A stretch of DNA of 11,027 nt from a virus: the UHGV virus genome UHGV-0176277, one strand, 5' to 3'. Made by a program: the position numbers and the translations under genes. Shown one piece after another: positions 3,252-5,958 of the stretch; position 1 is the stretch's first letter; each line of letters starts with the position of its first letter. A model generated the notes under the pieces. The model saw only the letters and a program-made list of their open reading frames with translations, was not told the origin of the DNA and did not search any database.

Positions 3252-3328
3252 GTGGATTGATCCAGTAATGACCTCAGAATTCCATCTGGATTTGTTCAGA
3301 ACGCTCGGTTGCCTCCGGGCGTTTTTTA
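3252..3328 (+). ncRNA. oop: oop-like antisense RNA overlapping the 3-prime end of cII
   Basis: Sequence tgattgatccagtaatgacctcagaattccatctggatttgttcagaacgctcggttgcctccgggcgtttttt closely matches lambda oop RNA as I recall it; ends in a GC hairpin plus T6; CATAAT -10 at 3239-3244; convergent with cII (stop at 3274). Confidence 0.7.
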
Positions 3329-3567
3329 TTGGTGAGAATCGAAGCAACTTGTCGTGCCAATCGAGCCATATCGTCGTCGACGACGCCCCATTCAAGAACA
3401 GCAAGCAGCATTGAGAACTTTGGAATCCAATCCCTCTTCCACCTGCTGATCTGCGACTTATCAACTCCCACAGCTTCCGCTGTCTTCTCAGTTCCAAGCA
3501 TTGCGATTTTGTTAAGCAACGCACTCTCGATTCGTAGAGCCTCGTTGCGTTTGTTTGCACGAACCAT
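3274..3567 (-). CDS. cII: Transcriptional activator CII (97 aa)
   Basis: Translation from the internal ATG at 3567 (MVRANKRNEALRIESALLNKIAMLGTEKTAEAVGVDKSQISRWKRDWIPKFSMLLAVLEWGVVDDDMARLARQVA...ERSEQIQMEF) is essentially lambda CII; SD and leader TAAGGAAATACTTACATATG match lambda. The track's 126-aa ORF is an upstream in-frame extension. Confidence 0.95.
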   Translation of the reverse strand: MVRANKRNEALRIESALLNKIAMLGTEKTAEAVGVDKSQISRWKRDWIPKFSMLLAVLEWGVVDDDMARLARQVASILTNKKRPEATERSEQIQMEF

Positions 3568-3587: not shown

Positions 3588-3618
3588 AATAAGAAGTTAT
3601 GCGCATCAACTTATGCGC
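3588..3618 (-). terminator. tR1-like terminator hairpin between nutR and cII
   Basis: On the minus strand GCGCAT-AAGTTG-ATGCGC (perfect 6-bp stem) followed by AUAACUUCUUAUUUGUU; lambda tR1 is at the same position and is largely Rho-dependent. Confidence 0.45.
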
Positions 3619-3626
3619 GTTGTATT

Positions 3627-3669
3627 CCCGCATTTCGGCGGGAATGAGGACCATGACTGTTAAAGAGCG
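3627..3669 (-). promoter_or_regulatory. nutR (boxA + boxB) N-utilisation site
   Basis: Minus-strand boxA CGCTCTTTAACA (plus 3658-3669) begins 7 nt after the cro stop; boxB hairpin CCCGC-CGAAAT-GCGGG (plus 3627-3642); the same boxA core and boxB recur at nutL (5299-5338). Confidence 0.75.
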
Positions 3670-3675
3670 GTGTTA

Positions 3676-3870
3676 CTATTTGTTTTTCTTGTTGCTTGGG
3701 AAAGGACGAACTTCCTCTCCAATCACACTGCCATCAGGCTTTACCGTAACCATAATGTTACGACCTGCCAGAATGGCCTTGCTGATAGCGCACTGGATTA
3801 CACCAAAGTCACTGGCTGCTTTAGCCTGTCCATGGATTTTGGCGTAATCGGCAAGTGTCATTCGAATCAT
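3676..3870 (-). CDS. cro: Cro repressor (64 aa)
   Basis: [62 protein letters not shown] aligns along its length with lambda Cro; ATG at 3870 with GGAG 7 nt upstream; divergent from cI. The track's GTG start at 3876 is a short extension. Confidence 0.85.
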
Positions 3871-3892
3871 ATGCACTCTCCGTTATTAACCA

Positions 3893-3976
3893 TGAACAAA
3901 GAATACTACAGGTATTCAAAGCAATCAATACTCAGGGTATTTTTAGTTTAAGTACCTTAGCTATTAGAATTAAGCT
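3893..3976. promoter_or_regulatory. Right operator region: three operators (AATAC-N5-GTATT type) with divergent PR and PRM
   Basis: Palindromes AATACTACAGGTATT (3902-3916), AATACTCAGGGTATT (3927-3941) and a degenerate AGTACCTTAGCTATT (3951-3965), spaced 24-25 bp. PR on minus: -35 TTGATT (plus 3923-3928), 17-bp spacer, -10 TATTCT (plus 3900-3905). PRM on plus: -10 TAGAAT 3965-3970 ending 6 nt before the cI ATG, so cI is leaderless with no SD. Confidence 0.7.
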
Positions 3977-4693
3977 ATGGAAAATAAAAAATCACTGACG
4001 ACAGAACAGCTCGAAGACGCTAAGCGGCTTAAGGCTTTGTATGAGTCAAAAAAGAAAGAATTGGGAATAACCCAATACTCAATCGCTGATGAACTGGGTA
4101 TCACCCAAGGAGCGGTAGGGCATTATCTTAATGGCAGAAACGCGCTAAACGTTGAGGTTGCATCTGGTTTTGCACGGCTGTTGCAAGTCTCAATTGCTGA
4201 TTTTAGCCAGTCAATTGCTGCCAAGGTTGCAGAACAGGCAGAAAGCCTTAAGAGCGATGCCAACGTAAGGTATGCAGGGGAATACAGAGCAGGAAAGAGG
4301 TATCCGGTGTTAAGCAGTATCCAGGCTGGCTCGTGGTGTGAAGCATGCGAACCATACACCATTAAAGACATAGATGTTTGGCTTGAGTCTGACGCGCATA
4401 TTCAAGGTAATGCGTTCTGGCTTAAAGTGGAAGGTGATTCAATGACGGCACCGGTTGGGTTAAGCATTCCAGAGGGGACATTCGTTCTTTTCGATACCGG
4501 AAGGGAGGCGATCAACGGCAGCTTGGTCATAGCAAAACTTTCTGACTCTAACGAAGCAACATTCAAGAAGCTGATAATCGACGGCGGAAATAAATACCTC
4601 AAGGGACTTAATCCTGCATGGCCTCTCGTGCCAATCAATGGAAACTGCAAGATTATAGGCGTTGCAATTGAGACAAAACTAAGGCTGGTTTGA
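3977..4693 (+). CDS. cI: CI repressor (HTH N-terminal domain plus S24/LexA-type autocleaving C-terminal domain)
   Basis: N-terminus ...LTTEQLEDAKRLKALYESKKKELGITQYSIADELGITQGAVGHYLNGRNALN parallels lambda CI; Ala-Gly cleavage site in SIQAGSW; catalytic Ser in EGDSMTAP and Lys in TFKKLI. Confidence 0.95.
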   Translation: MENKKSLTTEQLEDAKRLKALYESKKKELGITQYSIADELGITQGAVGHYLNGRNALNVEVASGFARLLQVSIADFSQSIAAKVAEQAESLKSDANVRYAGEYRAGKRYPVLSSIQAGSWCEACEPYTIKDIDVWLESDAHIQGNAFWLKVEGDSMTAPVGLSIPEGTFVLFDTGREAINGSLVIAKLSDSNEATFKKLIIDGGNKYLKGLNPAWPLVPINGNCKIIGVAIETKLRLV

Positions 4694-4710
4694 TCACGCA
4701 AGGGGCGATT

Positions 4711-5079
4711 ATGGTTGGAACCGCTATAGCAAGCTTTTTTGGGATGTTGGCAATCTCGACAATTTACGGCTTAGCGCATGCTTTTATTGCGAAATCTCTA
4801 TCAGAAAAAATAAGCCAGGCTTGGGCGCATAGATCAGCTCGTTTCATGATTCTGGTGATCATAGCAATACAAGGGATATCTGCATTTATCCTCTATGGAT
4901 CAAGCTTATACCTATTGTATCAAGGCGCGACATTTACGCCTTACACCAGTGATTACGGAACTCTATACGATGGTAGTGAAGACATCACTGTGGCTTGGAT
5001 CGTCTTTGGTTTATCTATGGCCGTGTCTGTTGTAGCAGACATCATTAAGGTAATTCTCGTCTTAACCTTCGCTGACTAA
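4711..5079 (+). CDS. Integral membrane protein (122 aa, about three TM helices), unknown function, directly downstream of cI
   Basis: ATG at 4711 with AGGGG SD 5 nt upstream, 17 nt after the cI stop, same strand with no intervening promoter or terminator; hydrophobic segments VGTAIASFFGMLAISTIYGLAHAFIA, FMILVIIAIQGISAFILYGSSLYLLY, ITVAWIVFGLSMAVSVVADIIKVILVLTF. The track's TTG start at 4690 is less likely. Confidence 0.6.
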   Translation: MVGTAIASFFGMLAISTIYGLAHAFIAKSLSEKISQAWAHRSARFMILVIIAIQGISAFILYGSSLYLLYQGATFTPYTSDYGTLYDGSEDITVAWIVFGLSMAVSVVADIIKVILVLTFAD

Positions 5080-5165
5080 CCTATAATCCCGGCAGCAATA
5101 GCTATCGGGATCCACTTCACATATCCCGCATAAAAAGCACTGAACAAGCAGACACCGAAAAAATA

Positions 5166-5260
5166 AATATCCTTTGTATTCATTTGCTTATCATTATTTC
5201 ATCAAAAATAAATACCTTGGGTATTTACATAATAAAATACCTACAGTATTCTTTAGCCAT
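5166..5260 (+). promoter_or_regulatory. Left operator region with PL promoter
   Basis: Operators AATATCCTTTGTATT (5166-5180), AATACCTTGGGTATT (5211-5225), AATACCTACAGTATT (5236-5250) share the OR consensus; PL candidate -35 TTTACA (5224-5229), 17-bp spacer, -10 TATTCT (5247-5252), mirroring the PR architecture. Confidence 0.6.
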
Positions 5261-5297
5261 CAGCAGGACGCTGGAAGCCAAACGGAACAGATTGGCA

Positions 5298-5339
5298 GGC
5301 TCTTTAACATTGATGGGATTGTCCCGCCGAAATGCGGGA
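5298..5339 (+). promoter_or_regulatory. nutL (boxA + boxB) N-utilisation site
   Basis: boxA GCTCTTTAACA (5299-5309) about 40 nt downstream of the predicted PL start; boxB CCCGCCGAAATGCGGG (5323-5338), identical to the nutR boxB. Confidence 0.75.
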
Positions 5340-5652
5340 ACCAAAGAGTAGTTGGCTTTGGGGTGACGTGAAGTGCAGCTGCACGACGGCAACCGGAAGA
5401 TAAGCACCCGGCGCGTCACCGCCAAAGTCAATTCCATAGGCGTTATGCAGCCGCCACCATATTCAAGAAAGCTGCACAAGAGGTAGGAGGATTTATGTGA
5501 ATGCATAACTTCAAAACCGAGGTTAATTAAATCTCTCGATCCGAGCATCGACCTATTAGGTGGTGAGATGCTCTTTCTGCCCCTCAATTCGAGGGGCCAG
5601 AAACCACTTTGCAATCACTATCAATTCCAAAGTTGTTTCATCGGAGGTCAAC

Positions 5653-5958
5653 ATGACAGTAGTCATTACATATCTGGCTGACGATAACGCCAGAAATCGC
5701 CGCAGAGCACGCAGACAGGCTCAACGTGAACAGGCAATGCAAGAACAGCGACTGGCGCGAAAAATTGCGCTAAAGCTCTCTGGTTGCGTCAGAGCAGATA
5801 AAGCAGCATCACTCGGAAGCCTTCGCTGCAAGAAGGCAGAAGAAGTCGAGCGTAAACAGAATCGTATTTACTACCGCAAGCCACGCAGTGAAATGGGTGT
5901 GACTTGTGTTGGACGCCAGAAGCAACGCGGAAAATCAATTCCAGCTTATTACGATTGA
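5653..5958 (+). CDS. N: Antitermination protein N (101 aa)
   Basis: Arginine-rich motif NARNRRRARRQAQREQA near the N-terminus; C-terminus VERKQNRIYYRKPRSEMGVTCVGRQKQRGKSIP parallels lambda N; ATG with GGAGG SD 5 nt upstream. The track's ORF from 5560 is an upstream in-frame extension. Confidence 0.85.
   Translation: MTVVITYLADDNARNRRRARRQAQREQAMQEQRLARKIALKLSGCVRADKAASLGSLRCKKAEEVERKQNRIYYRKPRSEMGVTCVGRQKQRGKSIPAYYD

Follow-up and report, generated by a model that had tools for sequence, protein, structure and literature searches.

The 106-bp interval between cro and cI at positions 3871-3976 of the DNA examined here (11,027 nucleotides of UHGV virus genome UHGV-0176277, hereafter the window) very probably belongs to the lysis/lysogeny switch found in lambdoid phages of the HK620 immunity group, here within a genome or prophage that is a lambdoid mosaic. 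The control region is that of ordinary, previously annotated, lambda-like E. coli phages. Window positions 3600-5300, which cover cro, OR, cI, hkaS and OL, share 99.8% nucleotide identity with mEpX2 and 99.2% with HK620. The OL sites are identical to those of HK620, and the CI N-terminal domain is 99% identical to that of HK620 and 100% identical to those of mEpX2, HK140 and HF4s. The region therefore has the CI DNA-binding domain and the operators that define the HK620 immunity group; the TATCACCGC-type operators and the lambda CI N-terminal domain that define the lambda immunity group are absent, the half-site here being nAATAC. The initial annotation of this DNA had held that the sites set an immunity group of their own, distinct from that of lambda, and had suggested comparing the operator consensus with known lambdoid immunity regions. 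This comparison leads to the HK620 immunity region, with 100% identity to both HK620 and mEpX2 across the OR segment (3860-3990) and likewise across the cro-cI spacer, and so bears out a separate group and gives it a name.

The HK620 GenBank record (AF335538), whose source paper is Clark, Inwood, Cloutier & Dhillon (2001, J Mol Biol 311:657), already marks OR1-3, OL1-2, pR and pL at identical bases. Mapped to the window at an offset of +2099 and without indels, its features fall at 3901-3917 (OR1), 3926-3942 (OR2), 3950-3966 (OR3), 5235-5251 (OL1), 5210-5226 (OL2), 3893-3928 (pR) and 5224-5259 (pL), and for this reason the operators and promoters cannot be regarded as new; pRM is not annotated in the record. 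The same module is found in HK630, HK140, HF4s, HZ41, two EHEC podophages and two Stx2c phages, and in 146 of 5,426 complete E. coli genomes; it is thus common in E. coli prophages, some Stx2c phages among them. Outside the immunity module the mosaic of the window differs from HK620, with a lambda-type cII where HK620 has a P22-c1-like one, and the phage records each account for at most 58% of the window. A mosaic joint is visible at approximately 3668-3676, at the end of cro, beyond which the window has the lambda-type cII and both HK620 and mEpX2 the P22-c1-like cII. The match to the IME10, N7 and JEP4 records is limited to window 3600-3668. As a textbook switch of the lambda type whose sequence and annotation date from 2001, the module is of low general importance, and the gains from revisiting it are modest: a correction to the public annotation of OL3, a correspondence between operators and recognition helices, and comparative support for a leaderless cI.

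Compared with the usual map of lambda, the window shows the early region of a lambdoid phage or prophage in inverted orientation: P (DnaB-like) comes first on the left, followed by O, cII, cro, the spacer, cI, a small hydrophobic ORF, a control region rich in A+T, an N-like gene and genes for recombination. The lambda-type cII (PF05269) lies at 3274-3567 on the minus strand. The cro gene (3676..3870, minus strand, coordinates equal to those of HK620 cro) encodes a 64-aa protein with the N-terminus MIRMTL that matches the Pfam Cro family over its full length (PF09048, E = 3.6e-26), matches lambda Cro in PDB 1cop (E = 2.3e-18) and is 61% identical to lambda Cro, placing it in the lambda Cro family. 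A Shine-Dalgarno sequence, GGAG at 3881-3878, precedes its ATG by 7 nt, and the anti-SD pairing energy is -7.0 kcal/mol. The cI gene (3977..4693, plus strand) encodes a 238-aa protein with Pfam HTH_3 and Peptidase_S24 matches and the recognition helix (helix 3) QGAVGHYLNGRN; it aligns with full-length lambda repressor (3bdn) at E = 2.9e-52. It consists of a lambda-repressor-like N-terminal domain and an S24 autopeptidase C-terminal domain in which the Ala-Gly site, the Ser and the Lys are kept, QAG, GDSMT and FKK aligning with QAG, GNSMT and FKK of lambda, as expected of a self-cleaving repressor. The view that cI and cro are of the lambda family, taken in the initial annotation, is upheld by these structural and Pfam matches. 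Downstream, between cI and OL, the position of rexAB in lambda is taken by a further gene of the module's cI operon, an hkaS-like gene (4711..5079, plus strand, coordinates equal to those of HK620 hkaS) for a hydrophobic protein of 122 aa with no Pfam family above cut-off. The divergent cI (3977-4693, plus) and cro (3870-3676, minus), about 100 bp apart with three operators between them at 3901-3966, together with a second cluster, OL, that overlaps PL beyond the cI operon, make up a lambda-type switch.

The operators are six palindromes of the form AATAC-N5-GTATT, three at OR and three at OL, all of them where they had been placed originally and all among the top six in the window. OR1 (3901..3917; 15-bp site 3902-3916, AATACTACAGGTATT; 17-bp site, GAATACTACAGGTATTC) has a perfect core and overlaps the PR -10, while OR2 (3926..3942; 15-bp site 3927-3941, AATACTCAGGGTATT; 17-bp site, CAATACTCAGGGTATTT), also with a perfect core, overlaps the PR -35 and adjoins the PRM -35. 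OR3 (3950..3966; 15-bp site 3951-3965, AGTACCTTAGCTATT; 17-bp site, AAGTACCTTAGCTATTA) has two mismatches and is the weakest OR site. On the left, OL1 (5235..5251; 15-bp site 5236-5250, AATACCTACAGTATT; 17-bp site, AAATACCTACAGTATTC) has a perfect core overlapping the PL -10, OL2 (5210..5226; 15-bp site 5211-5225, AATACCTTGGGTATT; 17-bp site, AAATACCTTGGGTATTT) has a perfect core and both abuts and overlaps the PL -35, and the distal OL3 (5165..5181; 15-bp site 5166-5180, AATATCCTTTGTATT; 17-bp site, AAATATCCTTTGTATTC) has one mismatch. Over the whole window, AATAC-N5-GTATT with at most one mismatch has 5 matches against 0.22 expected, and at least 5 were seen in 0 of 200 dinucleotide shuffles; with at most two mismatches there are 12 matches against 4.3 expected, a count (at least 12) again reached in 0 of 200 shuffles. 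A symmetrised 17-bp weight matrix trained on the four perfect sites (3902, 3927, 5211 and 5236) ranks the six sites 1-6 of 11,011 window positions, OL2 being first, OL3 fifth and OR3 sixth, and the best position outside these six scores about half as high as the weakest of them. These best six occur only in the cro-cI spacer and in the stretch between hkaS and N, both of which flank the cI operon.

The operators and the recognition helices are conserved together. With the CI N-terminal domain as query, tblastn returned relatives in Serratia phage vB_SspS_OS31, Hafnia phage Pocitis76 and Erwinia phage vB_EhrS_49 (Ehr49). In these three the CI N-terminal domain is 65-79% identical with an identical helix 3, the Cro helix matches fully or almost fully, and each has exactly three OR and three OL AATAC-N5-GTATT sites in which the half-sites are kept and N5 is variable. 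Their OR spacing and their -10/ATG geometry are as in the window, whereas the N5 and spacer sequences differ. We also assembled a wider panel of IMG/VR viral contigs chosen solely by the OL2-OL1 DNA pattern. All 100 cI genes of this panel have helix 3 QGAVGHYLNGRN (one with a G to A change) and all 104 cro genes encode QCAISKA, while the CI N-terminal domains diverge to 72% identity and the Cro proteins likewise to 72%. At OR, 32 distinct segments were found and 31 were read (locus L074 was left out); each of these 31 has three sites whose centres are 25 and 23-24 bp apart, and L068 has an additional two-mismatch chance match inside cro. A fourth relative, Escherichia phage Fostie (PP925832; locus L004, 2400-2510), has the CI helix QSAVGHYLNGRN (QSAVG...) and the Cro helix QIAISKAL, and its three OR sites have half-sites of the form A(C/G/A)TAC; it may be a neighbouring specificity variant. 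The cro region is annotated on the wrong strand in the Fostie record.

How far these operators depart from those of lambda can be stated base by base. Both systems have 17-bp odd-centred operators, a tripartite OR and OL, PR and PL hexamers overlapping O1 and O2, an OR3 that ends 10 nt before the cI ATG, and a PRM -10 that shares its first 2 bp with the end of OR3 and stops 6 nt short of the AUG. The centres are 25 bp (OR1-OR2) and 24 bp (OR2-OR3) apart, compared with 24 and 23 bp in lambda, each OR spacer thus being 1 bp longer, and at OL they are 25 bp (OL1-OL2) and 45 bp (OL2-OL3) apart, compared with 24 and 20 bp. OR1 and OL1 are separated by 1.33 kb (centres 3909 and 5243) and not by the 2.4 kb of lambda, because one small gene replaces rexAB. 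The half-site n-A-A-T-A-C-(C/T) shares A2, A5 and C6 with lambda T-A-T-C-A-C-C and has A-T for T-C at positions 3-4. The sites had been called unlike those of lambda; this is right as regards immunity but overstated, since the half-site differs at positions 3-4 only and the layout of OR is that of lambda. On the protein side, the Cro helix is QCAISKAI compared with QSAINKAI in lambda (S28C, N31S), and CI helix 3 is QGAVGHYLNGRN compared with QSGVGALFNGIN (S45G, G46A, A49H, L50Y, F51L). Heteroimmunity with lambda is expected because the CI N-terminal domain is only approximately 50% identical to that of lambda. Synthetic circuits might also draw on the module as an extra lambda-like repressor/operator pair, which the operator differences lead one to expect to be orthogonal to lambda.

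The two-base change in the half-site goes together with changes in the residues facing it. We take Ser28 and Asn31 of Cro and Ser45 of CI to be the residues that read half-site positions 3-4 in the lambda co-crystal structures, and these are the ones changed here, to Cys and Ser in Cro and to Gly in CI. The residues reading positions 2, 5 and 6 are kept (Gln27, Ala29 and Lys32 of Cro; Gln44 and Asn55 of CI). An “evolutionary code” described for Cro proteins pairs Gln at helix position H1 with A+2, Ala at H3 with A+5 and Lys at H6 with C+6 (PMC6649833). For the Cro of the window it predicts nAnnAC and the observed half-site is nAATAC, with all three residues and bases in agreement. Two bases of the half-site thus track two or three residues of the recognition helices, in a manner consistent with the Cro code.

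The conservation of the operators together with the recognition helices is strong indirect evidence that CI and Cro would be the proteins that read these sites. We consider it extremely improbable that the palindromes are bound instead by a host regulator or by some other phage regulator. Such a regulator would have to account for sites confined to the two regions that flank the cI operon, where they overlap the PR, PL and PRM hexamers, and for their company with one CI helix (100/100) and one Cro helix (104/104) in proteins otherwise diverged to 72%; the sites moreover fit the Cro recognition code.

The promoters lie among the operators. PR, on the minus strand at 3893..3928, has the -35 TTGATT (reverse complement of 3923-3928) and the -10 TATTCT (reverse complement of 3900-3905) with a 17-nt spacer and a predicted start near 3893, and it coincides with HK620 pR. 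Its consensus score of 8/12 is under the threshold of the promoter scan, and the PR call therefore rests on position and homology. PL, on the plus strand at 5224..5259, has the -35 TTTACA (5224-5229) and the -10 TATTCT (5247-5252), again with a 17-nt spacer; the scan recovered it at 9/12 and it coincides with HK620 pL. The symmetric design described at the outset, with the TATTCT of both promoters overlapping the proximal operator and the -35 at the second operator, is thus confirmed from the sequence. PRM (3942..3977, plus strand) combines a weak -35, TTTAGT (3942-3947), with the -10 TAGAAT (3965-3970), the first 2 bp of which are the last 2 bp of OR3; the -10 is followed by the 6 nt TAAGCT and then by the cI ATG at 3977.

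By analogy with lambda, the PRM transcript is predicted to start at or next to the A of this ATG and to yield a leaderless cI mRNA. In lambda the cI mRNA made from pRM is leaderless, and a downstream box, AGCACA, is reported to boost translation of the leaderless message (PMC10491246). The HK620-type cI differs from that of lambda in lacking AGCACA, the sequence after its AUG being GAAAAUAAAAAA. Anti-SD pairing of the 20 nt that precede cI amounts to only -0.6 kcal/mol, compared with -6.1 to -7.0 kcal/mol for cro, hkaS, cII and O. The -10 lies 6 nt from the ATG in the window, lambda, Hafnia phage Pocitis76, Erwinia phage Ehr49 and Fostie and 7 nt from it in OS31, and in all 31 distinct OR segments that were read the end of OR3 is 11-12 nt from the ATG. 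The bases between -10 and ATG vary freely (TAAGCT, ATGAGT, GAGGTT, GGCATT, GACTGTT and others). A leaderless cI is supported because the distance is conserved, the intervening sequence is unconstrained and a Shine-Dalgarno sequence is absent. What the initial annotation reported here stands as far as the TAGAAT 6 nt from the ATG, the missing Shine-Dalgarno sequence and the lambda geometry are concerned, while leaderless translation itself is something we infer from that geometry.

The alternative is that cI is not leaderless, with PRM lying further upstream or with a leader of a few nucleotides and translation independent of a Shine-Dalgarno sequence, and this we regard as unlikely but worth keeping in mind. 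The 7 nt between -10 and ATG in OS31 and in three viral contigs leave room for a 1-nt leader, some relatives have GAGG or GGGG immediately 5' of the ATG, and the AGCACA box is missing. However, these G-rich runs are 0-2 nt from the ATG, too near to serve as a Shine-Dalgarno sequence, and in the window the anti-SD pairing is slight. TA(G/C)AAT is fixed 6-7 nt from the ATG in all lineages examined while the sequence between them varies, and the geometry is base for base that of lambda, in which a leaderless cI is established. The comparative support therefore favors a leaderless cI, and an AUG-starting cI mRNA would then be a conserved trait of this repressor lineage rather than a lambda peculiarity. 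In the record of Serratia phage OS31 (MT843276; locus L003, 2453-2503) the cI start is placed at an ATG within OR2, 48 nt ahead of the ATG that is homologous to the leaderless-type start, and is probably mis-called.

From these parts, and by analogy with lambda, a mechanism can be proposed in which CI and Cro binding, the order of site filling, activation, cooperativity, looping and the transcript start are all things that we infer. Dimers of CI would bind the 17-bp operators through the half-site nAATAC(C/T), and on OR1/OR2 and OL1/OL2 they would block the -10 and -35 of PR and PL and keep the prophage silent. At OR2, CI would adjoin the weak PRM -35 and would probably activate PRM. PRM transcription would start at, or within 1 nt of, the cI AUG and supply a leaderless cI mRNA in the maintenance mode. 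The weak OR3 and the distal OL3 would be filled last, shutting PRM off, and in lytic growth PRM would be repressed by Cro on the same sites. Prophage induction would follow when CI, stimulated by RecA, cleaves itself at Ala-Gly. The searchable literature yielded no experiments on CI or Cro binding, cooperativity, transcript starts, operators or immunity of the HK620 type, and the matches found in it only cite the genome paper.

The layout had also been read as predicting cooperative repressor binding, which it does not imply by itself: the repressor of the lambdoid phage 933W apparently lacks pairwise cooperativity (PMC3317979). In the CI of the window the lambda cooperativity interface appears to be only partly kept. 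Of the positions that we assume to form this interface in lambda (Arg196, Asp197, Ser198, Phe202 and Tyr210), Asp197 is kept, Phe202 is replaced by Tyr and Tyr210 by Trp, and Arg196 and Ser198 are not conserved in the alignment. In the lambda activation patch Asp38 is kept, and Glu34 is not conserved.

The third left operator is where our reading departs from the public record. The HK620 record has OL3 at window 5188-5204 (AF335538 7888-7904; TTATCATTATTTCATCA), which differs from the site at 5166-5180. The 17 bp at 5188-5204 score -20.7 on the weight matrix, compared with a window mean of -22.8, and rank 4268 of 11,011; they are the least conserved OL columns (0.63 bits/col) and are poorly kept in Serratia phage OS31. 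The half-sites of the distal OL3 hold 1.69 bits/col across 11 non-redundant OL segments (<85% identity, 45-bp class), the spacers of these segments being otherwise unalignable. All four named relatives have a third OL site; the OL2-OL3 distance is 45 bp in the window and OS31, 29 bp in Hafnia phage Pocitis76 and 21 bp in Erwinia phage Ehr49, compared with 20 bp in lambda. Of 58 unique IMG/VR OL segments, 45 have a start-to-start distance from OL2 to OL3 of 44-45 bp and 11 one of 28-29 bp, while 2 have no good third site (3 and 4 mismatches at best). Across IMG/VR loci L008-L127 OL3 is semi-conserved in its central 5 bp and its right half (CCTTA-ATATT), its N5 holding 1.24 bits/col against 0.5-0.9 in OL1 and OL2. 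We prefer the distal OL3 at 5166-5180, which was also the initial choice, because it ranks fifth and is conserved in sequence and position whereas 5188-5204 is at background. The OL3 annotation of the HK620 record is probably wrong and 5188-5204 probably not an operator. We also considered this stretch as the true third operator or as a decayed one, its position 22-23 bp from each neighbour suggesting a lost fourth site, and rejected both on its background score and its place as the least conserved stretch.

It could still be held that only two OL operators are functional, as in 933W, with 5166-5180 a chance or vestigial match, or that the true OL3 is the one in the record, and we think either version quite improbable. 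The recorded OL3 does lie 22 bp from OL2, a lambda-like distance (20 bp in lambda), near-matches come cheaply in a region with an A+T content of 74%, and the shuffle p for the third site, 0.0098 in the window, is weak in OS31 (0.085) and in Hafnia phage Pocitis76 (0.117). One viral contig has a decayed site with 4 mismatches at the 45-bp position. Against this, the distal site is fifth in the window and keeps its information content at exactly 44-45 bp in 11 non-redundant lineages, a third site is found in 4/4 named relatives, and the recorded site scores no better than background and is the poorest in conservation. With a third operator at 5166-5180, the lambda OL3/OR3 model may not transfer unchanged, because OL3 is 45 bp from OL2 and not about 20 bp. 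It is conceivable, though on the doubtful side, that the HK620-type group holds its third left operator at a discrete, evolutionarily fixed distance (44-45 bp in most lineages, 28-29 bp in a sister lineage and 21 bp in an Erwinia phage) and not beside OL2, with a spacer free to vary, and that this reflects a different OL3-OR3 loop geometry for PRM shut-off or a second function overlapping OL3. By eye, the OL3-OL2 spacer has no convincing IHF-like site or promoter, and the tIMM of the record (window 5161-5191) has no convincing intrinsic terminator by eye and none in the terminator scan.

Several smaller observations concern the antitermination elements on either side of the module. A putative nutR lies at 3625-3669 (minus strand) and a putative nutL at 5299-5339 (plus strand), with the boxA-like sequences CGCTCTTTAA and GGCTCTTTAA, each of which is followed by an identical boxB hairpin, TCCCGC-CGAAAT-GCGGGA. 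An N-like ORF within 5560-5958 has the arginine-rich motif NARNRRRARRQAQ and a weak Pfam N_peptide match (E = 0.0016). In Hafnia phage Pocitis76 (OL512804; locus L006, 3923-4002) a tRNA-Gly is annotated between PL and N, the place expected for nutL. Finally, the end of the 254-kb record of the Aeromonas jumbo phage AP1 (MT713136.1, 253449-253659) contains 211 bp that are 99.1% identical to window 3600-3810; this stretch corresponds to nutR and the 3' part of cro and may be assembly contamination.
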